A stretch of DNA of 64,000 nucleotides from Thermohalobaculum sp. (GCA_965263335.1 CBDHHE010000009.1:28645-92644); one strand, 5' to 3'; shown: positions 3 to 36,187, counted from the first letter of the stretch. The notes: generated by a model not told the origin, from the sequence alone. Numbers and translations are program-made.

Positions 3-662
3 TTCGCCTTCTTTGGTTCGTCCTCCTATGCGGCTGCATACACCGCGACCGACGGAAACGTTGACCCGCTTCTGAGCCGCTTGCAGAATGACGGATCGAC
101 CGGCTACTACTCGATCCTCGTGACACGCTGCGACAGCGGTCTGAACGATCTGGCCTCGCTCGAAGGCAAGATCCTGGCATTCGCTGACCCCGACTCCACA
201 TCCGGCTATGCGGTGCCTTACTACAACATCGCCAAAGAAGTTGACCCCAAGACATTCTTCTCGTCCATCCCGTTCTCGGGCAGCCACGAGTCCGGTGTGT
301 CCGGTGTCGTAAATGGCACCTTTGACGCCGCTGCAACCTATATGACCAACGAAACCAACGGCATCATCCCGCGTATGGTCACCAAGGGCATGATCGAAGA
401 GGGCGTCGCCTGCCCGATCTGGAAATCCCCGGAAATCACGTCCGGTCCGTTCACGGCGCGCGGCAACCTGCCGCAAAGCCTCAAGGACGATATGAAGCAA
501 GCCATCTTCGACATCGTCACGAAGGACCCCGAAGCCTTCAAAGAGATGACCGGCGGCGAAGACAGCACCCAGAAAGGCTGGATCGAGGTTGATCACAGCC
601 GTTACCAGTGGATCGTCGACATGCGTGACTGGCTGAAAAAAGAGCGCCGCAAGTCCGGCTAA
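3..662 (+). CDS. phnD: Phosphonate/phosphate ABC substrate-binding protein, 5' truncated by window edge
   Basis: Frame is open from base 3 (FAFFGSSSYAAAY...). Contains the AFADPDSTSGYAVP and FSGSHE motifs of PhnD. Two phnE genes follow. Confidence 0.9.
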   Translation, partial: FAFFGSSSYAAAYTATDGNVDPLLSRLQNDGSTGYYSILVTRCDSGLNDLASLEGKILAFADPDSTSGYAVPYYNIAKEVDPKTFFSSIPFSGSHESGVSGVVNGTFDAAATYMTNETNGIIPRMVTKGMIEEGVACPIWKSPEITSGPFTARGNLPQSLKDDMKQAIFDIVTKDPEAFKEMTGGEDSTQKGWIEVDHSRYQWIVDMRDWLKKERRKSG

Positions 663-668
663 GAGGTT

Positions 669-750
669 TCGCCGCGCCTGCGCGCGGCGACCGGCCGGGG
701 GAGGCTGCGCCTCCCCCGGCGTCCTCCAAGATATATCTGCCGAAAGGAAG
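669..750. repeat. REP-like double-hairpin intergenic element
   Basis: TCGCCGCGC-ctgc-GCGCGGCGA (669-690) and GCCGGGGGAGGC-tgc-GCCTCCCCCGGC (694-720) between phnD and phnE. Confidence 0.65.
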
Positions 751-755
751 ACGGC

Positions 756-1694
756 ATGGTGGCGATCGCCTCCCATGACACGGGCCCCGCACCGGGATCT
801 GTGCAAGAATTCGAGGTCGCGTTTGCAGCGCTGCGCCGTCGCACCCGCCTGACATGGGCCGTGGGCACGGTCGCCTTTCTGATCCTTTTTATCATCTGTT
901 CCTGGCTGGGGGATTTCTTCAAAGTCACGCAGGTCACGATGCCGGACGGATCGCGCGAATGGCGCTGGATCATTCCTGCGGGCCTGCCGCGGCTGGGCGA
1001 GTACGTTTCCAAGACGATCCCCGATCTGAGCTGGTCGACCCTGGGCGAGGACCTGTCCGAGTGGTTCTGGCGCTGGCGGGTCTGGCTGAGACTGTGGTTT
1101 GAGACCGTCCTGATCGCCTTTATGGCCACGACGCTGGGTGTGATTGGCGGCTTTCTTCTGTCCTTCCCGGCCTCGCGCAACCTGGCCCCGAACCCGTGGG
1201 TGCTGTGGATCAGCCGCCGCTATCTTGAGATTGCCCGCACCGTTCCCGATCTGGTCTGGGCGTTGATCTTTGTGTTCTGTTTCTCTGTCGGCCCCATGGC
1301 CGGGGTGCTGGCCATCGGGCTTCATGCCTGCGGCGCCCTTGGCAAGCTTTACTCTGAGGTCAACGAGAACATCGACATGCGCCCCCTTGAGGGCGTCAAG
1401 GCCGCAGGTGGCACGTGGTTCGATCAGATCCGCTATGGCGCCGTCCCGCAGGTGCTGCCCAATATCATCAGCTACACGCTGCTGCGGTTTGAGATTAACG
1501 TCCGGTCGTCCTCCATCATCGGCTATGTCGGCGCGGGCGGGTTGGGGCAGGAGTTCCGCGAAGCGATGTCGCTGCAGGAATATACCGACATCTCGGCCCT
1601 ATTCGTCATCATCTTTGTCACCGTGATCGTGATTGACTATGGCTCGGAAAAGCTGCGCCATCGCGTGATCGGATTGGAGCAGGCCTCATCATGA
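756..1694 (+). CDS. phnE: Phosphonate ABC permease
   Basis: ARTVPDLVWALIF, GKLYSEVNENID and FEINVRSSSIIGYVGAGGLG motifs. Confidence 0.92.
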   Translation: MVAIASHDTGPAPGSVQEFEVAFAALRRRTRLTWAVGTVAFLILFIICSWLGDFFKVTQVTMPDGSREWRWIIPAGLPRLGEYVSKTIPDLSWSTLGEDLSEWFWRWRVWLRLWFETVLIAFMATTLGVIGGFLLSFPASRNLAPNPWVLWISRRYLEIARTVPDLVWALIFVFCFSVGPMAGVLAIGLHACGALGKLYSEVNENIDMRPLEGVKAAGGTWFDQIRYGAVPQVLPNIISYTLLRFEINVRSSSIIGYVGAGGLGQEFREAMSLQEYTDISALFVIIFVTVIVIDYGSEKLRHRVIGLEQASS

Positions 1695-2542
1695 CACCTG
1701 ATCGTATTGCCGCTGCCCGCGCCCGTGTGCCTTTGGCCTTTCGCGACCCGCCGATGGTGCGGGCCCGCAAAATCGGTCTTTGGGTGTTTTTCGTCGGTCT
1801 CTTTATCTGGTGCCTTTACGATTTCAACTTCTCGCCTGAACGGATCTGGAACGGGCTGGGTCGGTTTGGCCGGGTCCTGTCGTTCATGTTCCCGCCCCAC
1901 ATCTGGACCACATGGGAGGCCTGGGCCGAGATCCTTGAGGGGCTGGGTGAGACCTTGTCGATGGCCTTTATGGGCACTGTTCTGGGGGCGGTCATTGCCT
2001 TTCCGCTGTCATTCCTTGGGGCCAAGAACATCAACCGGATTTTCTGGCTGCGGCAGGGGTCGCGCCGGTTCTACGACGTGATCCGGGCGTTCGAGACCCT
2101 GATCCTCGCGTTGATCTTCATCCGCGCCTTTGGTCTTGGGCCGCTGGCCGGGATCATGGCGATTGCGGTGAGCGAGATCGGGACATTCTCCAAGCTGTTC
2201 TCTGAGGCGCTTGAAAACACGTCGCGCAAGCCGGTCGAAGGCGTCATGGCCTCGGGCGGGTCGCGCCTGCAGACGATCCGCTATGCGATCATGCCGCAGG
2301 TCTTGCCGGTGCATCTGTCGGTTCTGCTGTACAACTTCGAATCGAATGTCCGTTCGGGCACGATCCTGGGGATCGTGGGCGCGGGCGGCATCGGTTTCCT
2401 TCTGTCGGACCGGATCAGCGCCTATCGGTGGGACGAGGCGTGGTCGATCATTTTCCTGATCATCGCAATGGTCTATCTGATCGACTGGCTGTCAGCCCTT
2501 GTCCGCACCCGTCTGATCGGCGAAAACGTAGCGGCGAAGTGA
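1691..2542 (+). CDS. phnE: Phosphonate ABC permease (second subunit)
   Basis: KLFSEALENTS and FESNVRSGTILGIVGAGGIG motifs. ATGA overlap with the preceding phnE. Confidence 0.92.
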   Translation: MTPDRIAAARARVPLAFRDPPMVRARKIGLWVFFVGLFIWCLYDFNFSPERIWNGLGRFGRVLSFMFPPHIWTTWEAWAEILEGLGETLSMAFMGTVLGAVIAFPLSFLGAKNINRIFWLRQGSRRFYDVIRAFETLILALIFIRAFGLGPLAGIMAIAVSEIGTFSKLFSEALENTSRKPVEGVMASGGSRLQTIRYAIMPQVLPVHLSVLLYNFESNVRSGTILGIVGAGGIGFLLSDRISAYRWDEAWSIIFLIIAMVYLIDWLSALVRTRLIGENVAAK

Positions 2543-2560
2543 CGGACGGTACGTGATCAG

Positions 2561-3187
2561 ATGAGCGGTGCGGGAACGAAGCAGGCCCTGTCAGAGGCGC
2601 CCACGATCCATGACGGTGCGCGGGTCATCGATTGCACCCTGGGCGTCTGGACCGAGGTCGGCAGCGGCACCATGATGCGCGACGTGACGATGGGTGACTA
2701 TTCCTACATCACCGAGCATGGCCACGTGGTCTGGACCACGATTGGCAAGTTCTGTTCCATCGCCAACGGCGCGCGCATCAATCCGGGCAATCACCCGACG
2801 TGGCGCGCGACGCAGCACCATTCGGTCTACCGCGCCGCGGCCTATGGGCTGGGCGAGGATGACCACGACTTTTTCCAGTGGCGCAAGGACCACTGGGTGA
2901 CCATCGGCCACGATGTCTGGATCGGCCATGGGGTGACCGTGACGGCGGGTGTCACCGTGGGCACGGGCGCGGTCATCGGCGCCGGTGCGGTGGTGACGCG
3001 CGATGTCGAACCCTACACCGTTGTGGGCGGCGTTCCCGCGAAGTTCATCAAGCGCCGGTTCACCGAAGCGCAGGCCGAAGCGCTGCAAGAGATCGCCGTC
3101 TGGGACTGGCCCCGCGACGCCTACAAGGCCGCGCTGCCCGATATTCGCGCGCTGGAGATCGATGCCTTTATCGAAAAGTACCGGTGA
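2561..3187 (+). CDS. Hexapeptide-repeat acetyltransferase of the type found in phosphonate-utilisation clusters (CAT/Vat-like)
   Basis: [27 protein letters not shown] and [14 protein letters not shown] motifs. Directly downstream of phnDEE. Confidence 0.88.
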
Positions 3188-8324: not shown

Positions 8325-9382
8325 CAGCCCTTGATGCCTCCGAGTGTCATTTGCGTGAGATACCGTTGGCAGGCGAGGTAGAGCGCGAGCGACGGCAGGA
8401 TGTAGATGACCGAGACCGCCGCGACGAGCCCGTAGTCCACACCCATCACGTCTTCGGCCACGTAGTAGAGGTAGGTGGACATGACCCAGTACGACGTGCC
8501 CGTGCGGAGCGCGGTGACAAAGACGTATTCCTCCCACCCCTGAATGAACCCCAGCACAGCGATGGCGATCAACCCGGCCCGCACCTGTGGCAGCACCACG
8601 TACCAGAAGGCTTCGCGCCGCGATGCGCCGTCGGTCATGGCGGACATTTCGATGTCCCATGGCACGGCGTCAAAGAAGCCTTTCATGATGAAGATGAAGA
8701 ACGGCAGCTGCAGCGCCGTCAGCACGAGGATCGGCCCCGTCAGCGTGTTCAGGAGCCCGATCCAGAAGATCACCAGAAAGATCGGGATGGCGAGCATCCA
8801 GGGGTGAAAGACCTCGATCAACAAGAGCCCCTGCAGGAACGCCGAACGTCCGGGGAAGGCGAACCGGCTGATGTAGTAGCCTGCCAGCGTCGCAACGGTG
8901 ACCTTGAGCGCGGTCGAACTGGCCGCGACCCAGAGCGAATTGCCAAAAGCCTCCCACACCCATGGGAATTGTCCGCCTGCCGTGGCGGCGCCGCGGATCT
9001 CTTCGATGAGGTTGGGCGTGATCAGAAAGCGGTAGTTGTTGAGGTGCAGTTCGGTTCCCACGGCCAGCCAAAGCCCCAGACCCGCCGCACCAAGGCAGCC
9101 AAGCGCGGACCAGAGCCGGTGCCGGGGCAGCGCAAGATGTAGCGCCACGTAGCCCAGCGTCGCAGGCACAAGCACGGCGCAGGCCCGCCAGAGCACGTCG
9201 CTTTCCACCCCGCCCGTGCGCGCCGAGAGCGAAATGACCAGCACCCAGAAGAACGGCAGGATCACGGGGATCGAGACCAGCGTGAGAAACCCGACGAGCA
9301 GCACGGTTTTGATCCGTTGTCCACGGCGTGACTGCCGTGCCAGCGCGTCCCAATCCGGGGCGGGTGTCTGGCTTGCGGTCAT
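8324..9382 (-). CDS. Carbohydrate ABC permease (MalG-like)
   Basis: EAA-type loop EMSAMTDGASRREAFWYVVLP with multiple TM segments. Confidence 0.9.
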
Positions 9383-10320
9383 TGCACTTCGATCCGGGGA
9401 CGGGCCAGCAGCCGTTTCATATTCGTCAGCCGCCAGAGGATGAGCGCTACGGCCATCCCGATCACGATCAGGATCAGCGTGATGGCCGCGCCGTAAGCGT
9501 ATTGGCCCGAGCCGATCTGGGGGGCCAGCGTCTTGGTATAGGCCAGCATCGACATGGTCATGGTCTGCCGCGCGGGTCCCATGATCAGGAAGATGTATTC
9601 GAAGCTCACCAACAGGGCGAGGGTCTGGAACACAGTGATGTAGCTGAGCGGCCAGCGCAGGGCGGGCAGGACGATATGGCGCACGATCGACAGGCTACCC
9701 GCCCCGTCGGCGCGGGCGGCGTAGAAGAGGTGCTGGGGGATCGAGCGGATCGCGCTCGTCAGGATCAGCATCCCGAGGCTTGCCCCCACAAAGCCGTTGG
9801 CCAGTACGATCAGCGTCACCGGCGCGTCGAGCTTCATGTTGATCGGGTCCAGCCCCACCACGCTGATGATCTGGTTCAGAAGCCCCCGTTCGGTCGGGTC
9901 CACCGTCCAGAGCCACAAAAGCCCATAGACCACCGACGGCGCCATGCGCGGCAGAAGCCAGACCGCCCGATAGAGCCCGCCCAGCCAGTCCGGCAGCGCC
10001 GTGGTGGTCAGGGCCAGGATCAGAGCGAAGGTGACGTTGAAGATCGCCAGCGTGAAGAACATGTAGATCGCCGAGAGCGACAGGGCGCGATAGAACGACC
10101 CGCGTAGCTCATAGCCCCACCAGCTGTCCTCGGACGGTTTGGCCAGCTTGCGGAACTGCTCGCCCGAGTACTCCTCGACCTTCAGCGTCTGGCTCATGTC
10201 GGTGAAGGCCACGACCAGATCGACAAAGATCGGCACCAAGAGCAGACAGACCATAAACACACAGGCCGGCCCGAGAAAGAGCAAGGCATTGCCCGCTTGT
10301 CGCCGCGCCGAACCCGTCAC
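9379..10320 (-). CDS. Carbohydrate ABC permease (MalF-like)
   Basis: AIRSIPQHLFYAARADGA loop. Probable GTG start at 10320 in a GTGA overlap with the upstream gene. Confidence 0.88.
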   Translation of the reverse strand: MTGSARRQAGNALLFLGPACVFMVCLLLVPIFVDLVVAFTDMSQTLKVEEYSGEQFRKLAKPSEDSWWGYELRGSFYRALSLSAIYMFFTLAIFNVTFALILALTTTALPDWLGGLYRAVWLLPRMAPSVVYGLLWLWTVDPTERGLLNQIISVVGLDPINMKLDAPVTLIVLANGFVGASLGMLILTSAIRSIPQHLFYAARADGAGSLSIVRHIVLPALRWPLSYITVFQTLALLVSFEYIFLIMGPARQTMTMSMLAYTKTLAPQIGSGQYAYGAAITLILIVIGMAVALILWRLTNMKRLLARPRIEVQ

Positions 10321-12408: not shown

Positions 12409-12436
12409 CCGGACGTATTTCTGTCCGGGCGGTAGT

Positions 12437-13252
12437 TTAGTGCGCGAGGCCAAGTCCCTGCAGATAGCCGAAACCCTTGGGGATGTCGGCCTTGTTGCGC
12501 AGCTCAAGCACCAGATGCGGCGCGCTTGGGCAATCGCCAAGCGCGCGGAAGACGGCGGGCCATTCGATCTCGCCCTCACCCGGTGCCCAATGCCGGTCAG
12601 CATGCCCATCCAGGTCCTGGATATGCACATGCGCCAGTTGCGCACCTGCATCCCGGACAAAGTAATCGACGGGCGGGGCTCCGGACATGCGCCGGGCCAG
12701 ATGGGCGTGGCCTGTGTCAATCGAGAGCGCAATGGCATCGGATCCAAAGCTGTCGACCATGTGCCGCCGGGTCGCGGGATCGACGTCCTGGATGTTTTCG
12801 ATCACCAGCGTGATCCCTCTTTCCGCAGCAGCGCGGACCACCGGCGTCATCACCTCGTGGATCCGTTCCAGCTTCTCTTGCGCATATCCTTCGGTACAGA
12901 GCAGATTGTTCTGGAACCAACGCGTATAAGGCGAATGCATCACCATCTGCCGGGCACCGATCCGGTCAGCGGCATCGAGCGCCGCAAGAAACCGGTTGGT
13001 GATCAGCGGGCGCAGTTCGGCATCCTTGTTGTCGATGTCGAGCCCTTCAAACGGACCATGGATCCCGCGCCGTCCGCTATGGCCGTCAAGCGCGGCTTGC
13101 GCCGCCGCGACCCGGTCATCCAGTTCGGTCGTCAGCGCGGCATGGGTCATGAAATCCTGAAGTTCGATGTCGCGCTCTGCGCTAAACAACCAGTCGCGAT
13201 GCGCGGCGATGTCGTCACTCTTCAGACAGGCGCCGATCTTCAGCGGTGTCAT
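12437..13252 (-). CDS. Sugar phosphate isomerase/epimerase family TIM-barrel protein (AP endonuclease 2 type)
   Basis: HGPF, LVIENI, SIDTGHAH, HIQDLDG..DRHW.PGEG metal-binding motifs. Confidence 0.85.
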   Translation of the reverse strand: MTPLKIGACLKSDDIAAHRDWLFSAERDIELQDFMTHAALTTELDDRVAAAQAALDGHSGRRGIHGPFEGLDIDNKDAELRPLITNRFLAALDAADRIGARQMVMHSPYTRWFQNNLLCTEGYAQEKLERIHEVMTPVVRAAAERGITLVIENIQDVDPATRRHMVDSFGSDAIALSIDTGHAHLARRMSGAPPVDYFVRDAGAQLAHVHIQDLDGHADRHWAPGEGEIEWPAVFRALGDCPSAPHLVLELRNKADIPKGFGYLQGLGLAH

Positions 13253-14441
13253 GGGGCAGTCTCCTTGGGTCAGGAATGAGGAAATAGGTGAGAATGGCCA
13301 TCAGGAGCACGGCCGTCATCGTGGCAAAGGACCACCAGCCGCCGAAGGTCTGTGTGGTCCAGGCAAACACAAAGGGGCCGGAGGCGTTCATGGACATGGA
13401 CGCCGCCGAGATCCAACCCAGGCGCGTGCCGAAGCCTTTGTGCCCGAATAGCGCCAGAGGGAGGGTCCCACGGGCGATGGTCTTGATCCCATCGCCCATG
13501 CCGTAGAGTGCGGCGGCCAGCAGCACACCGGGCAGCGTGAAGCCCACGATCAGGAGCGTGAGAAACCCCGACATCATCAGCGCCATCGCCATGATGTAGG
13601 TGACAAGCGGATACATGTTGCGGCTGACCAGCATCTCGAAGAACCGCCCGACCGTCTTGAACGGACCGATGACAGCCCCCGCCAGCGCGGCCATTGCAGC
13701 GGTATGACCAAGGTCCTGCACATTGGTGACCCAAAGGGTCATGACCGCGCCCATCAAGTATCCCGAAAAGAGAAACGAGATCACCATCCAGAGCATGCCC
13801 CGTTTGCGGGCCTCACCTGTCAGCTCGGGCCAGTCCTGCGCGGCCTTTGTCTTGGGGTTGTCCGGATCCCGTTCCGGGCCATTCAAGACCAACAGATGCA
13901 GCGGCAGGCAGATGACAAGGTAGGCGGCACCAAGGATGATCCATGTGCTCTCCCATCCCACCCGATTGAAGAGCGCCAACGTAAGTGGCCAGAAGATCGT
14001 TGAGGCAACGCCGCCAAAAAGCGTGATGACCGAGATCGAGCGTTGCGGCGGCACGCGCAGATCAAGCCGAGCAACAGCCGCGAAGGCGACGTTGTAGAGC
14101 ACAAACATGCCCGCGCCCTCGGCCAGCAGGATGAAAAGCAAAAGCCCGCCCCGCCCCTCAACAAGGCTCATCCCCATGAGCGCCAGCCCGGCAACAAGCG
14201 AACCGCCGGTCATCACCCAGCGTCCGCCGAAACGGTCCACCAGTTTTCCCGCAACCGGCGCGGTTGCACCGCCCAAGAAAAGCCCGATGGACAGGATGCC
14301 AAAGACTTCGGACAGGGTCAGGCCAAGGTCCTTGGCCATTTCAGGCAGAAGGATCGCATAGGCATACATGAGCGTGCCATAGCCCATGATCTGTGAGATC
14401 CCGAGGCCAATGGCCGGGAGGTAGTCGCGGTCGAGCCTCAA
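13215..14441 (-). CDS. MFS transporter (efflux type, ArsK-like N-terminus)
   Basis: About 12 TM segments. LGISQIMGYGTLMY, GKLVDRFGGRWVM and TLFGGVASTIFWP motifs. TTG start in a TTGA overlap with phnM. Confidence 0.85.
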   Translation of the reverse strand: MRLDRDYLPAIGLGISQIMGYGTLMYAYAILLPEMAKDLGLTLSEVFGILSIGLFLGGATAPVAGKLVDRFGGRWVMTGGSLVAGLALMGMSLVEGRGGLLLFILLAEGAGMFVLYNVAFAAVARLDLRVPPQRSISVITLFGGVASTIFWPLTLALFNRVGWESTWIILGAAYLVICLPLHLLVLNGPERDPDNPKTKAAQDWPELTGEARKRGMLWMVISFLFSGYLMGAVMTLWVTNVQDLGHTAAMAALAGAVIGPFKTVGRFFEMLVSRNMYPLVTYIMAMALMMSGFLTLLIVGFTLPGVLLAAALYGMGDGIKTIARGTLPLALFGHKGFGTRLGWISAASMSMNASGPFVFAWTTQTFGGWWSFATMTAVLLMAILTYFLIPDPRRLPHDTAEDRRLSEE

Positions 14442-15655
14442 CACCCGGCGGGGTGTCCGCGATAGGCAGTGCGACCTGCGACCCATGTGCCGCGCACCGC
14501 CGGCGTCTGCCCTTCGGGCCAGTCGACCAGCACCAGATCTGCGCGCTTGCCGACCGCGATGCTGCCCCGGTCATGGAGCTTCATGGCCCGCGCTGGTCCT
14601 TCCGAGACAAGCGACCAGAGCCGCAACCGGTCCGCACGCTTCTCGCGATCCAGCCGGTCGACTGCGGCGAGCATGGCCGGATAGTAGTAGTCAGAGGCCA
14701 GCACGTCACAAAGCCCCTCTTCGACCATGTCGCCTGCCCCCAGCGATCCGATGTGGCTGCCGCCGCGCACCGCATTGGGCGAGCCGAAAATCAGCGTGTC
14801 GCCTGCATCCCGCGCGGCTTGGGTTGGGCCCATGGTCATGGGAAATTCCGCCACGTCCGCGCCCAGATCCCGGTAGAACGCCCGGGTGTCGGCCTGCGTG
14901 TCGTCGTGGCTCAGCATCGGGATCCCCTTGTCGCGCGCCTTTTTCGCGACCTTTGCAATAGTTTGCGGCACGTCTGGTCGCCGCGTCCAGACGTCGCGTG
15001 CGAGCGTCCGGTAGTGATCATACTCCAGACCAGAGCGTTCGGCATGTTTGCGAAAGCGCTGTTCGAAAAGCGCATCGTCGTCAGGATCCATCACAGCGAA
15101 GTCCGGATCGTGTTCGAAAAGCCGGTCCTGCATGCGCACGTCCGGACCCCGCATGGCCATCGACAGGTGATCGTTGAAGGCCAAGGCCGGGGTCAGCTCC
15201 CAATCCATCGCCCAGTCGAGCGTGTCGAGCGCCTCATGCGCAAAGGTCTCCCAACGGAGCTGCACGCGGTTTTCCACGGTCAGGCGCGGGGCAAGATCGC
15301 GCAGAGCGGCGATCAGCTCGCGCCCGCGTTCGACGCTGCGCAGCCCCGGTTCGAACCCCAGCGTGATCGAATGGTAGGTGGTCGCGATCCCGTTTGCCGC
15401 CAATTGCCGATCAGTTTCGAGCACCGCCGTTTCAACCGGGAAAAACACGCCCGGACGCGGCATCAACTGCCGTTCAAACGCGTCGCCATGCACGTCGATC
15501 AGCGCCGGAGCCAAGATCAGACCCCGCGCATCGATAACCTCGCCCTGCAAGGGCCCGCCGATCTCGCTGATCTGACCATCCGAGACGGTGACCGACGTCT
15601 CGGCCATCTCGCCCGGCAGGTAGACCGTGGCGCCTTCAAAAGTCAGGGTGGTCAT
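14438..15655 (-). CDS. phnM: Alpha-D-ribose 1-methylphosphonate 5-triphosphate diphosphatase-like amidohydrolase
   Basis: IDVHGDAFERQLMPRPGV, SHDDT, AEFP, GSPNAVRGGSH and LASDYY motifs. Start MTTLTF at 15655. Confidence 0.9.
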   Translation of the reverse strand: MTTLTFEGATVYLPGEMAETSVTVSDGQISEIGGPLQGEVIDARGLILAPALIDVHGDAFERQLMPRPGVFFPVETAVLETDRQLAANGIATTYHSITLGFEPGLRSVERGRELIAALRDLAPRLTVENRVQLRWETFAHEALDTLDWAMDWELTPALAFNDHLSMAMRGPDVRMQDRLFEHDPDFAVMDPDDDALFEQRFRKHAERSGLEYDHYRTLARDVWTRRPDVPQTIAKVAKKARDKGIPMLSHDDTQADTRAFYRDLGADVAEFPMTMGPTQAARDAGDTLIFGSPNAVRGGSHIGSLGAGDMVEEGLCDVLASDYYYPAMLAAVDRLDREKRADRLRLWSLVSEGPARAMKLHDRGSIAVGKRADLVLVDWPEGQTPAVRGTWVAGRTAYRGHPAGC

Positions 15656-15657
15656 TC

Positions 15658-16302
15658 TTAGAGCCGCTCCAACGTCAGGTGCCAATGGTAGGACCCGGGC
15701 TTTTCGTGTTCGCGATCTTCAAGACGCAGTACCTCGAAACCCGAGAAGATGGCCAGCAGTTCGGCGGCATTGCAGAAGTAGTGCGGATGGATCTTGTCAG
15801 TTCCGGGCGCGTCGAACACCCAGGCATTGCGGCCGATCTCGGACCCCTTGGCCTTGGCTTGTTCAAACGGAAGGCGCCGCTTGGACAGCATCGTGCCCAT
15901 AAAGGTGCCGCCGGGTTTCAGGATCCGGCGGATCTCGGCAATGGTGCGCAGCAGGATGTCTTCGTTGCCGTGATAGATCACGTTCCAGCTGAGCACGTGG
16001 TCAAAGCTGTGATCGTCGAACGGCAATTCGTGCATGCGCGCCTCAACCGTCTGCACGCCGCCCACCTTGTCGATTTCGGCCAGCCCCTCGGCTGCGGCAT
16101 CAAGTGCGGTGACCGCATGCCCTTGCCCGGCCAGCCACAGCGCGTGACGGCCAACCCCTGCCCCAAGGTCGAGGATCCGCGAGCCCGGGCCAAACGCGGT
16201 GGCCCAGTTGATGACGTCAGGCTCGGGCGTCAGCCATTTGCTGCCCTTTTCGATATTGGCCCACTCGGTGTTCCAGTGTTGATCTGCTGTGTCGGACTTC
16301 AA
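15658..16302 (-). CDS. Class I SAM-dependent methyltransferase
   Basis: ILDLGAGVGRH motif I, FDHVLSWNVIYH and RRILKPGG motifs. TTG start overlaps the phnE stop. Confidence 0.88.
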   Translation of the reverse strand: MKSDTADQHWNTEWANIEKGSKWLTPEPDVINWATAFGPGSRILDLGAGVGRHALWLAGQGHAVTALDAAAEGLAEIDKVGGVQTVEARMHELPFDDHSFDHVLSWNVIYHGNEDILLRTIAEIRRILKPGGTFMGTMLSKRRLPFEQAKAKGSEIGRNAWVFDAPGTDKIHPHYFCNAAELLAIFSGFEVLRLEDREHEKPGSYHWHLTLERL

Positions 16303-17102
16303 CGTTGCTCTCCGATGATTTTGGTTCTGGCCCAGCCGCTGAGCTGTTCGATCCCGATCACAACGATGGCGATCATGAGGATCACCGTCATCGCGGTCGG
16401 ATAGTCAAAGAGGTCAAAGCCCACCTTCAGTTCGATACCGATCCCGCCTGCACCCACAAGTCCCAAAATGGTCGAGGACCGCACCGCCTTTTCCAGCGCG
16501 TAAAGCGAGGTGGAGATAAAGGCGGGCATGGATGCGGGGATCGTGGCACAAGCCACGACGTCGATCTTGCGGGCCCCCGTGGCGGTGAGTGATTCCGCTG
16601 GGCCTTTGTCGGCGGCCTCCATGTCGTCGGCGAAAAACCGGCCACAAAAGCCGATCGTATCGACCACAATGGCCAGCATCCCGGCAAAGGGCCCCAGCCC
16701 GACGGCCACCACGAAGACCAGGGCCCAGGCAATGTCGGGCACGGCGCGGATAAAGCCGAGGACCGTGCGCACAAGTTGGTTGACCCAGTGCCCCGCAATG
16801 AGCCCGCGCGCGGCCAAGAGCGCAAAGGGAAGCGACAGGATGACCCCCAGCACCGCCCCGGCCAGCGCGATTTGCAAGGTTTCGATCATCTTCCAGCCAA
16901 GTCGGGCCAGTACGTTCGGTTCGAGATTGGGCGGGAAAGCCCGGTTCAGAAAATCCGCGAACCGGGGTGGCGCGGTGACCACCTTTTCGATTGAGAAGCC
17001 AGCGCCAGCGAAACACCAGAGGATGATCACGATGCTGGCCGCATAGCCCAGGAACGCAACAGCCGAGGGCCGTTCGACGCGTGCAGGTGCGAGATCAGTC
17101 AT
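16299..17102 (-). CDS. phnE: PhnE-type ABC permease
   Basis: IRAVPDIAWAL and LEKAVRSSTILGLVGAGGIG motifs. Confidence 0.9.
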   Translation of the reverse strand: MTDLAPARVERPSAVAFLGYAASIVIILWCFAGAGFSIEKVVTAPPRFADFLNRAFPPNLEPNVLARLGWKMIETLQIALAGAVLGVILSLPFALLAARGLIAGHWVNQLVRTVLGFIRAVPDIAWALVFVVAVGLGPFAGMLAIVVDTIGFCGRFFADDMEAADKGPAESLTATGARKIDVVACATIPASMPAFISTSLYALEKAVRSSTILGLVGAGGIGIELKVGFDLFDYPTAMTVILMIAIVVIGIEQLSGWARTKIIGEQR

Positions 17103-17913
17103 AAAGCCCCCTGAGGTCCGAGGCCGTCAGCGCGTTGGCGTCAGTGTTCAGTTTCAGCCGTCCGTCGGCAAGCCCAAGCACCCGGTCACCGTAGCGCAGG
17201 GCGTGGTCGATATTGTGCGAGGTAAAGACAACGGTGACCCCGTCTTCGCGGGCAAGTTTGAAAAAGAGATCCATCACATCTTCACCGGCTGCGGGGTCGA
17301 GCGAGGCGCAGGGCTCGTCGGCAATCAGAATCTCGGGCTGGCTGACAATCGCGCGCGCGATGGCCACCCGCTGGGACTGACCGCCCGATAACCGGTCCGC
17401 CCGTCGCAGGGCGAAGTCTGCGAGCCCGACCTTTTCCAGCGCCTGAATAGCGGCGGTTCGCGACGTGGCGGGGGCCAGACTATGGCTCCAGTGCCGCACG
17501 CCGGGGCGTTGTCCCAAAAGTCCGTGGATGACATTCGACAGAACCGACAAGCGGGGCACCAAGTTGTGCTTCTGTGAGACCAACCCGACGCGTGAACGAA
17601 GCGCGCGCAGGGCACTGGGTTTGGCTTGGCTTGTGTCCTCGCCCAGCAACACAACGCGCCCGGCGCTCACGGGGATCAGTCCCATCACGCAACGCAGCAA
17701 GGTGGATTTGCCGGTGCCATTCGCGCCGACAAGCGCCACCGCCTCGCCCCGGGTGATCTGAAAGCTGACATCCGAAAAAATGGGCGTGGTGCCGAAGGTC
17801 TTGGCCACGGCATCCGCAGCGACATCGACAGGCGCAGCCGGAGCGTCAACCGCTCCGGCCTGAGCCTGATGCGCAGGTGGCGCATCAGGCGTATTGACCA
17901 AAAGATCAGTCAC
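17095..17913 (-). CDS. phnC: PhnC-type ABC ATP-binding protein
   Basis: GANGTGKST, LSGGQSQRVAIARA and ADEPCASLDP motifs. Probable GTG start at 17913. Confidence 0.88.
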   Translation of the reverse strand: MTDLLVNTPDAPPAHQAQAGAVDAPAAPVDVAADAVAKTFGTTPIFSDVSFQITRGEAVALVGANGTGKSTLLRCVMGLIPVSAGRVVLLGEDTSQAKPSALRALRSRVGLVSQKHNLVPRLSVLSNVIHGLLGQRPGVRHWSHSLAPATSRTAAIQALEKVGLADFALRRADRLSGGQSQRVAIARAIVSQPEILIADEPCASLDPAAGEDVMDLFFKLAREDGVTVVFTSHNIDHALRYGDRVLGLADGRLKLNTDANALTASDLRGLYD

Positions 17914-18775
17914 CGATGAACTTGTCGAACTGGGGGAAGCCCGCGTTCGTATACATGGACCGTACGTAGTCATATGCGCTGTCTTCGATCGCAACGAGAT
18001 CCATGCCGACGTATTTGTCGTTCTCTTCGTGAGCTGTGATGCCCGCGATGATGTCGGCCTTGTTTTCGAGGATCGAGGTCTTCACCAGTTCCGCAGCTTC
18101 GGCTGGGACATGTGCACCCACCATGATCATGTCATTTGGCAAATCGCCCGAGCGCCCGATCATTTTGAAGAAGCCGTAAGGCAGATCCGTTTCCTTGGCC
18201 CGCACGTTCAGCCAGCTGTTGGCGTTCGAGCCAATGGCATCCACGTCGCCCGCCTTGAGCGCTTCATGCGCAATGTTCCGGCTGGTATGGGTCTTTTCGA
18301 TATCGGCCACCGGATCGATGCCGTGATCGGCCAGAATCTGCATCGGGCACAGCATGTTCGAGGTCGAACCGATGTCACCAAACGCAACCTTCTTGCCTTT
18401 GAGGTCCTGCATCGTGTTGATGCCGCTGTCAGCGCGCACGATGATGGCACAGTGATAGTCCGGACGGCCGAGCCCGATCAGGGGTGTGGCGTTGGTCAGC
18501 TTGTTGATCACCACATATTCCGCAGGTCCGGAGACCACGAAATCAACCGTTTCACCGCGCAGTGCTTCAGCCGCGGCGGTGCGCGAGTTCACGGCGAAGA
18601 ACTCAAACGTCTCACCGGTTGCCTTTTCGAGCGCCTCTTTGAAAGGCCCCCATTCGAGTTGCAGACGCTCCATGCCTTCGACATCTGTGACAGCGATCTT
18701 CCATGTCTCGGCGGCGACGGCAAACGCGGACATTGCCGCGAGGCCAAGGCCCATCAACATTGACTTGAATTTCAT
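17906..18775 (-). CDS. phnD: PhnD-family substrate-binding protein (substrate uncertain)
   Basis: Signal peptide, IIVRADSGI..LKGKKVAFGDIGSTS motif and LPND motif. Confidence 0.87.
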   Translation of the reverse strand: MKFKSMLMGLGLAAMSAFAVAAETWKIAVTDVEGMERLQLEWGPFKEALEKATGETFEFFAVNSRTAAAEALRGETVDFVVSGPAEYVVINKLTNATPLIGLGRPDYHCAIIVRADSGINTMQDLKGKKVAFGDIGSTSNMLCPMQILADHGIDPVADIEKTHTSRNIAHEALKAGDVDAIGSNANSWLNVRAKETDLPYGFFKMIGRSGDLPNDMIMVGAHVPAEAAELVKTSILENKADIIAGITAHEENDKYVGMDLVAIEDSAYDYVRSMYTNAGFPQFDKFIGD

Positions 18776-18818
18776 GATACCCTCCGTTGGAAATTCATTC
18801 GGATGAATGCCCCGAGTT

Positions 18819-18858
18819 GTTTCAGGGTGATAACGGTCTCATGAAATTTTAGTGACGA
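18819..18858 (-). promoter_or_regulatory. Pho-box-like array upstream of the second phnDCE operon
   Basis: Minus strand TCGTCAC-TAAA-ATTTCAT-GAGA-CCGTTAT-CACC-CTGAAAC: four degenerate heptamers at exact 11-bp spacing. Confidence 0.55.
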
Positions 18859-36158: not shown

Positions 36159-36187
36159 GTGAAGCTAATGTGACGCCCAAGTGAAGG
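36159..36187 (-). promoter_or_regulatory. Pho-box-like triple repeat upstream of the deoR-ugp operon
   Basis: Minus strand CCTTCAC-TTGG-GCGTCAC-ATTA-GCTTCAC, with TCAC at exact 11-bp spacing. Confidence 0.55.

Follow-up and report, generated by a model that had tools for sequence, protein, structure and literature searches.

A seven-gene operon of Thermohalobaculum sp. (positions 12437-18775 of a 64,000-nucleotide stretch of DNA, GCA_965263335.1 CBDHHE010000009.1:28645-92644) is most likely an undescribed side-branch of the ordinary carbon-phosphorus (C-P) lyase system, and not a stand-alone pathway or an arsenic system. The whole stretch, referred to here as the window, corresponds to C9:28645-92644 of the 97.9-kb contig C9, in a genome of 5.99 Mb that the names of homologues place among the marine Rhodobacteraceae. 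That the operon is an accessory module dependent on C-P lyase is, as judged from gene content and genomic context, very probable. The more specific reading that we favor, and regard as probable with less assurance, is that it would constitute a phosphate-starvation-induced import and tailoring branch feeding C-P lyase in marine Roseobacter-group bacteria. Marine bacteria exploit phosphonates mainly through C-P lyase, to which aerobic methane formation from methylphosphonate is also attributed, and its accessory genes decide which compounds enter the pathway.

The interval is filled by seven co-oriented open reading frames on the minus strand. Families were assigned with Pfam and NCBIfam profile models, using the curated cut-offs of the latter, and the genes and their flanking elements are as follows.

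18841-18856, minus strand: Pho-box-like direct repeat GTCACTAAAATTTCAT (GTCAY-N6-TTCAY), in the 119 bp upstream of phnD2
18793-18808: 16-bp palindrome ATTCATCCGAATGAAT, candidate shared phn operator, located between that repeat and the ribosome-binding site
17906-18775, minus strand: phnD2, periplasmic binding protein of the PhnT family (TC 3.A.1.9), 289 aa with signal peptide (PF12974, E 6e-41)
17095-17913, minus strand: phnC2, ATP-binding cassette (ABC) ATPase, 272 aa from GTG (best ATPase model TIGR02315, 240.6 bits against a cut-off of 266.1)
16299-17102, minus strand: phnE2, single ABC permease, 267 aa (TIGR01097 PhnE, 264.8 bits, above the cut-off of 216.7)
15658-16302, minus strand: MT, class I S-adenosylmethionine (SAM)-dependent methyltransferase, 214 aa (PF08241/PF13649, Methyltransf_11/25)
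14438-15655, minus strand: phnM2 (Mx), PhnM-family amidohydrolase, 405 aa from ATG 15655 (NF011987, 368.7 bits, above the cut-off of 253)
13215-14486, minus strand: MFS, major facilitator superfamily transporter, likely start GTG 14444 or TTG 14441 (PF07690)
12437-13252, minus strand: TIM, xylose-isomerase-like (AP_endonuc_2) TIM-barrel enzyme, 271 aa (PF01261, E 1.9e-28)
12409-12428, minus strand: inverted repeat CCGGAC-N8-GTCCGG directly 3' of the TIM stop, possible operon end

The phnC2 frame is open up to position 17994, and the GTG start agrees with a 272-aa gene call in Salipiger. Read from the sequence, phnD2 and phnC2 overlap by 8 nt (GTGACTGA), as do phnC2 and phnE2 (ATGACTGA); phnE2 and MT overlap by 4 nt (TTGA), a 2-nt gap separates MT from Mx (TAA-GA-ATG), the GTG or TTG start of MFS overlaps the TGA stop of Mx, and MFS and TIM share 38 nt, with an AGGAG ribosome-binding site. 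These junctions couple the seven genes translationally, and they bear out an earlier description of the locus, the first-pass annotation, which had reported seven co-oriented genes, several of them joined by overlapping stop and start codons. The inverted repeat has no T-run and was not called by the terminator scan, so it marks the end of the operon only tentatively.

Comparison with the canonical C-P lyase operons, phnCDEFGHIJKLMNOP of E. coli and the phnF-GHIJKL-M-CDEE form of Rhodobacteraceae, shows what is ordinary and what is not. A PhnCDE importer set (a PhnD-family binding protein together with PhnC and PhnE) and a PhnM-family hydrolase are common to all; the studied operon occurs in the same genomes, often at the same locus, shares a palindrome with phnF and phnC, and is probably likewise under Pho control. 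In contrast, it has no phnGHIJKL of its own, encodes one permease rather than two, and adds MT, MFS, and TIM, and the paralogues that it encodes of the canonical binding protein, ATPase, and PhnM are divergent. The first-pass annotation had called this an atypical phn set and had counted MT, MFS, and TIM as non-canonical phn genes. We agree on both points, as the binding protein, PhnC, and the PhnM-like protein all score below the cut-offs of their canonical equivalogs.

The arrangement is widely conserved. A pattern scan with one genome per species returned 354 matching species-level loci, of which the best 80 were mapped. Within these best 80 of 354, the binding protein, ATPase, and permease genes (D-C-E) lie ahead of MT in 71/72 loci long enough to hold them and Mx comes after MT in 72/73, whereas TIM is present in 44 and MFS in 26 of 61 operons (both in 23, neither in 14). 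The core D-C-E-MT-Mx was also recovered in 20 of the 21 loci of the family survey, and gene order, when checked in other genomes as the first-pass annotation had proposed, is thus strongly conserved.

The neighbors of the operon in these relatives tie it to C-P lyase. In Salipiger mucosus, D-C-E-MT-Mx-TIM adjoins phnL-M-C-D-E-E; in Yoonia, D-C-E-MT-Mx-MFS-TIM is divergent from phnF-GHIJKL-M-C-D; and in Sulfitobacter, Pelagimonas, and Planktotalea the operon directly follows phnIJKLM. Among the 51 long loci (≥18 kb), a C-P lyase core gene or canonical phnM lies at most 10 kb away in 38, and phnJ itself in 22. Two types of C-P lyase adjoin the operon, their PhnJ being either 74-93% or 47-48% identical to that of Yoonia; the PhnJ of the present genome, on contig C1, is of the 47-48% type, and the operon occurs beside either.

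Co-occurrence points in the same direction. A survey covering 301 genera of the family, with one genome per genus, found PhnJ in 151. MT was present in 25 genera, all of them PhnJ-positive (25/25; hypergeometric p = 1.1e-8), and the Mx clade in 47, again all PhnJ-positive (47/47; hypergeometric p = 1.2e-16). Of 10 loci examined in which Mx occurs without MT, 5 still have it together with D-C-E genes or within a phn cluster. Because of these loci and the survey, the second importer and Mx can be regarded as a stable pair to which MT is a very frequent addition, with TIM and MFS optional.

The core itself lies elsewhere in this genome. None of PhnG, PhnH, PhnI, PhnJ, PhnK, or PhnL is encoded in the window or on the whole of contig C9, and the earlier description of an operon without a C-P lyase core therefore holds for both; it does not hold for the genome, which has a complete core on C1. 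The single PhnJ is encoded at C1:4187402-4188217, in a locus with PhnG, PhnH, PhnI, two ABC ATPase genes at the PhnK/PhnL positions, PhnN, DUF1045, and PhnM. Because this core is complete, the genome can cleave C-P bonds, though not from contig C9. In the same cluster (C1:4185902-4194734, L012), phnI and phnJ flank a gene for a HAD-family phosphatase, a glyoxalase/FosA-like gene lies downstream of phnM, and the DUF1045 gene is on the opposite strand. PhnP was not found in the genome. TIM and Mx were considered as a missing PhnP-type cyclic phosphodiesterase and rejected, since the DUF1045/2H phosphodiesterase gene already in the C1 cluster leaves no need for either in that role.

A second set of phn genes lies closer to the operon. 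The left edge of the window (3-3187, plus strand) is the tail of a neighboring canonical phn cluster, which the first-pass annotation had overlooked.

C9:25543-26253: phnF, upstream of the window tail
C9:26287-27459: canonical-type phnM, beginning 33 bp after phnF
3-662, plus strand: 3' part of phnD (full-length phnD, L010, TIGR03431 271.5 bits, above the cut-off of 261.1)
756-1694, plus strand: phnE (TIGR01097; the two phnE score 253 and 277 bits)
1691-2542, plus strand: phnE (TIGR01097; as above)
2561-3187, plus strand: hexapeptide transferase (TIGR03308, 278.5 bits)

The cluster reads phnF-phnM-phnC-phnD-phnE-phnE-TIGR03308 transferase-GNAT, its phn part spanning C9:25543-31171. It is convergent with the seven-gene operon, and a phosphodiester-scavenging operon of ~7.6 kb lies in between. 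In the usual Roseobacter form, phnF-GHIJKL-M-CDEE, the core genes stand between phnF and phnM; here phnGHIJKL are absent from that position. To the left of the window, where the first-pass annotation had suggested that phnGHIJKL be sought, there is a phn cluster with no GHIJKL in it. The form phnF-phnM-CDEE without GHIJKL recurs in another genus (G004, L142), so it may be a recurrent module of regulator, PhnM, and importer that uses a core encoded elsewhere, and not a one-off deletion.

Shared control elements connect the operon with the rest of the phn genes. A Pho-box-like repeat equivalent to that upstream of phnD2 lies at the same relative place before the orthologous gene in most of 21 loci, and a loosened form of the pattern has only 117 occurrences in the 6-Mb genome, 3 of them on contig C9. 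Control of the operon by the Pho system (PhoB) may be inferred. A stronger Pho-box-like site than that of the operon stands elsewhere in the window (36159-36185, minus strand), with three direct repeats in an 11-bp register (TTCAC-N6-GTCAC-N6-TTCAC).

The palindrome, allowing up to 2 mismatches, occurs only twice in the genome: here and at C9:27532-27547, just before phnC of the phnF-M-CDEE cluster. In several other genera (L013, L014, L040-L044, L048), all copies of the palindrome ATTCATYCGRATGAAT that were found precede phn genes (phnD2, phnC, or phnF). It is therefore a candidate for the shared operator of a phn regulon. Before phnC and phnF it ends 4 nt 5' of the ATG and includes a Shine-Dalgarno-like motif, GGATGA. 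Two other identities were rejected: an mRNA hairpin or riboswitch, as the palindrome is not in the minimum-energy fold (z = -0.42), and the known PhnF box, which in Agrobacterium is TGTCTAT-N4-ATAGACA (PMC11494704) and differs from it.

Taken with the linkage and the strict presence of PhnJ, this cis-element bears on the first-pass annotation's view of the operon as independent of C-P lyase. That view is not upheld: in related genomes the operon adjoins phnF-GHIJKLM or is transcribed divergently from it, PhnJ is always present, the cis-element is shared, and the present genome has the core on C1. The contrary outcome that it had itself named, in which these genes act as accessories to a neighboring canonical C-P lyase, is largely what linkage, co-occurrence, and cis-element indicate.

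What the operon imports must be read from its binding protein. phnD2 scores 89.8 bits with the PhnD equivalog model TIGR03431 (cut-off 261.1), compared with 271.5 for the neighboring canonical PhnD. Its best solved relatives are PtxB and HtxB, to which it is also close in size, and with these, E. coli PhnD, and GpxB (PhnT family, TC 3.A.1.9) it has in common the fold family, the STS phosphorus-head motif (S137-T138-S139), and the hinge tyrosine (Y107). A 321-aa "phosphonate-binding" chain, 9lf9, which we take to be GpxB, matches phnD2 at E 6e-7. GpxB is a PhnD-family protein that binds glycerol phosphates and is associated with two permeases, GpxC/D (PMC12718374); a GpxB-type glycerol-phosphate importer was rejected on the grounds of this weak relation and of the one permease in the operon.

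Differences from PtxB and HtxB are concentrated in the pocket. The capping Tyr203 of PtxB is replaced by D215, which is invariant in the family and falls on D205 of E. coli PhnD in a profile alignment. The position of HtxB Trp52 and E. coli PhnD Y47 is taken by R65, nearly invariant in the family, and His155 of PtxB by Asn167. In PtxB and HtxB, the aromatic cap (Tyr and Trp52, respectively) makes the P-H...pi contact (PMC5700983), and D205 of E. coli PhnD is the amine contact for 2-aminoethylphosphonate (2-AEP) (residue roles from PMC12718374, PMC5700983). The predicted pocket would suit a larger polar or cationic side chain and argues against phosphite or hypophosphite. Uptake of these two was rejected for want of an aromatic cap and of PtxD or HtxA in the operon: neither the PtxD dehydrogenase nor the HtxA dioxygenase has a match among the seven proteins or in the mapped relatives. 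Elsewhere in the genome, a paralogous region (C1:2192633-2201479) carries a PhnE/PhnD-like/PhnC set on one strand and, on the other, a phnD-C-E set 43-52% identical to that of the operon, after which come genes for an M20 peptidase, for an aminoglycoside-nucleotidyltransferase-like protein, and for a distant MFS (23% identical).

The hydrolase Mx is related to PhnM but distinct from it. PhnM is alpha-D-ribose 1-methylphosphonate 5-triphosphate diphosphatase, which converts ribose-1-phosphonate 5-triphosphate to 5-phosphoribosyl 1-phosphonate (PRPn) and pyrophosphate (PPi). Mx belongs to the same amidohydrolase family and is 30-37% identical to canonical PhnMs, but scores 288.1 bits against a cut-off of 390.55 for the PhnM model TIGR02318 and passes only that of the subfamily NF011987 (368.7 against 253). 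Aligned with three Rhodobacteraceae canonical PhnMs, it keeps the positions invariant across all of them (H66-x-D68, E71, D172-H173, S259-H260-D261-D262, E280, N304, R307, and D332-Y333), which are presumed to be metal-binding and catalytic. It differs by an insertion of ~24 aa and by its place in a maximum-likelihood tree, where one clade with 100/100 support unites E. coli PhnM with the two canonical types of Rhodobacteraceae and another, also with 100/100, unites Mx with stand-alone paralogues. It occurs only in PhnJ genomes and is always additional to a canonical PhnM.

One stand-alone paralogue of the Mx clade, 55% identical to the Mx of the operon, is found in this genome at C1:3381912-3383204 (L009 8910-10205), flanked by dnaN-recF-gyrB and upp, close to the probable replication origin and with no phn neighbors. 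A further PhnM-like gene (C1:2028566-2029696) consists of two matching pieces, one with an in-frame TGA, and is probably a pseudogene. A sequence search returned no Protein Data Bank (PDB) relative of Mx.

At E ≤1e-10, 1277 relatives of MT were found; the best 120 of these 1277 are 74-84% identical, and the named ones are from marine Rhodobacteraceae. As far as its relatives allow it to be judged, it is an uncharacterised family specific to the operon. It has many invariant His, Arg, and Trp positions and a single Cys (C177). The best named NCBIfam models, DVU_1556 and TehB, are matched far below their cut-offs, with 44.7 bits against 218 (NF008405) and 31.8 against 219.5 (TIGR00477) for TehB, and ArsM-type models give 24-30 bits against cut-offs of 240-575. 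The conserved cysteines of ArsM bind As(III); with its single Cys, MT does not have the ArsM-type set.

For the two optional genes, the relationships are looser. The nearest NCBIfam model to MFS is that of the arsenite efflux pump ArsK (NF033733), at 291.7 bits below a cut-off of 400, making it a relative and not an equivalog; lactate, monocarboxylate, and oxalate/formate transporters of the superfamily come next. TIM has weak matches to keto-sugar epimerases and to hydroxypyruvate and 2-oxo-tetronate isomerases, and its best solved relative is TTHB071 (PDB 3ayt). In one locus of another genus (L139, G288:C61, ~8628-9400), the gene for a TIM paralogue (49% identical) stands immediately after phnM, in a phnF-GHIJKLM operon with neither MT nor a second importer, which ties the TIM family to C-P lyase itself and not to the methyltransferase. 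No functional hint came from the contexts of three paralogues: the copy of Mx by dnaN/upp, a copy of TIM next to genes for a family-5 binding protein and for an EEP phosphatase, and the copy of phnDCE with the M20 peptidase.

From these observations, we infer the class of the substrate, what MT methylates, and the step at which Mx acts. Under phosphate starvation, the second, divergent PhnDCE-type ABC importer would be made, and its binding protein, with a phosphonate-head motif and an open pocket containing an aspartate, would capture an organophosphonate whose side chain is polar or cationic, and not phosphite or hypophosphite. In the cytoplasm, the SAM methyltransferase might tailor this compound or its ribosylated intermediate, and Mx would carry out a PhnM-type metal-dependent hydrolysis of the resulting non-standard ribosyl-triphosphate adduct. 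The C-P bond would be cleaved by PhnGHIJKL encoded elsewhere, here on contig C1. MFS and TIM would be optional add-ons, probably dealing with a by-product.

The tailoring step is drawn by analogy. PhnO is an aminoalkylphosphonate N-acetyltransferase that tailors substrates for C-P lyase, and MT would share with it the concept of a phn-encoded small-molecule transferase modifying a phosphonate for use or tolerance. The two differ in fold and cofactor, MT being a class I SAM methyltransferase and PhnO a GNAT acetyltransferase. The neighboring C9 cluster already contains a GNAT and the TIGR03308 hexapeptide transferase. The assignment of steps, with MT as a PhnO-like tailoring enzyme and Mx acting on a ribosyl-triphosphate adduct, is tentative, and we would give it rather less than an even chance of being correct. 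Somewhat more doubtful still is that MT and the PhnM2 clade represent an undescribed enzymatic branch of the C-P lyase pathway, in which SAM-dependent methylation of a phosphonate, or of its ribosyl adduct, would precede processing by a dedicated PhnM-type hydrolase.

Several observations pull the other way. In about a quarter of the long loci, no phn gene lies at a distance of 10 kb or less, and in the present genome the operon and the C-P lyase core are on different contigs and could cooperate only in trans. That PhnJ always accompanies MT and Mx is no proof of biochemical dependence, as the operon and PhnJ could both be traits of phosphorus-scavenging lineages. In the lineage represented by L143, a D-C-E-Mx set with a binding protein 81% identical occurs without MT, so methylation is not always needed. 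An Asp at the cap position is also found in HtxB (LPND), so that D215 does not mark amine binding specifically. Structural models of the two enzymes gave no hint of substrate: Foldseek with the MT model (AlphaFold2, pLDDT (predicted local distance difference test) 93.9) returned just generic small-molecule methyltransferases and TehB (template modeling (TM) scores 0.62-0.76; TehB 0.62-0.64), and with the Mx model (pLDDT 90.2) just generic amidohydrolases of allantoinase- and dihydroorotase-like type. A search for RNA runs holding the operon sequence found none.

The close rival to the accessory import and tailoring branch is the salvage of conjugated phosphonates, which we consider unlikely. 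In this case, the importer would bring in a small ester or anhydride of a phosphonate, such as a fragment of the polysaccharides in marine dissolved organic matter that are esterified with methyl- or hydroxyethyl-phosphonate, and Mx would hydrolyze it directly to a free phosphonate for the ordinary C-P lyase pathway. TIM and MFS would handle the released sugar or acid moiety, and MT would have a side role. Co-occurrence with PhnJ is explained equally well by this scheme, and it would suit both an Mx that is always extra to canonical PhnM, never its replacement, with its separate clade and insertion, and a TIM that resembles sugar and keto-acid isomerases and epimerases. PhnD-family proteins can also bind esters, as the glycerol phosphates bound by GpxB demonstrate (PMC12718374). 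However, at 289 aa the binding protein of the operon is small; it is nearest to PtxB and HtxB, which have small pockets, and its relation to GpxB-like proteins is weak. None of the residues conserved across canonical PhnMs is lost in Mx, the methyltransferase has no obvious role, and TIM is missing in 17 of 61 operons.

Much less likely than the favored import and tailoring branch, and very improbable in itself, is a self-contained pathway independent of C-P lyase for non-standard or reduced phosphorus (phosphite, hypophosphite, or H-phosphinate), with chemistry by MT and Mx and export by MFS. This is close to what the first-pass annotation had proposed, namely the uptake, modification, and export of a non-standard phosphorus compound or of a phosphate analogue such as arsenate. 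The unusual genes on which that interpretation drew are real; the arsenate analogue, like the independent pathway, is much less likely than the favored branch. Such a pathway would account for the lack of phnGHIJKL on contig C9, for the ~25% of long loci with no phn gene nearby, for PtxB (phosphite) and HtxB (hypophosphite) as the best solved relatives of the binding protein, and for the sub-equivalog scores of the binding protein, ATPase, and Mx. It is at odds with the presence of PhnJ in 25/25 MT and 47/47 Mx genomes and with a palindrome common to phnF and phnC. Moreover, the aromatic cap for P-H recognition (PMC5700983) is replaced by Asp215 and Arg65, and the operon encodes neither PtxD nor an HtxA-type dioxygenase.

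Least probable, by our estimate, is a safeguard against As, Sb, or Te oxyanions imported by mistake, methylated by a TehB-like MT and expelled by an ArsK-like MFS: TehB is among the weak best NCBIfam matches of MT (44.7 bits; Foldseek TM about 0.63), ArsK is the best model for MFS (291.7 bits), and the PhnD family includes the arsenic binder ArrX, but the scores are far below the cut-offs (TehB 218, ArsK 400), MT has a single Cys and no ArsM-type set, MFS is missing in 35/61 operons, no ars genes are linked to the operon, no arsR, arsC, or arsH occurs in any mapped locus, and neither Mx nor the tie to PhnJ is explained. Arsenic or tellurite detoxification was rejected on these grounds, and the arsenate idea of the first-pass annotation finds little support in them.

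No description of the operon, the MT family, or the Mx clade was found in the full-text literature searched. With 354 matching species-level loci, the operon is conserved in hundreds of Roseobacter-group species, and it encodes an importer and a methyltransferase family of its own as well as a PhnM paralogue from a distinct clade. The ligand and the two enzyme reactions, once found, would extend the known substrate range or the chemistry of the C-P lyase pathway. Annotation would improve as well, since genes of the operon are now named as ordinary phnD and phnM, and the reading of "phn" genes in ocean metagenomes would be refined. If the methylation branch proposed above is true, C-P lyase would be opened to marine phosphonates beyond the textbook pathway, such as the aminoalkyl-, functionalised, or conjugated phosphonates of dissolved organic matter, and there would be a new route from organic phosphorus to the release of hydrocarbons or methane in the ocean.

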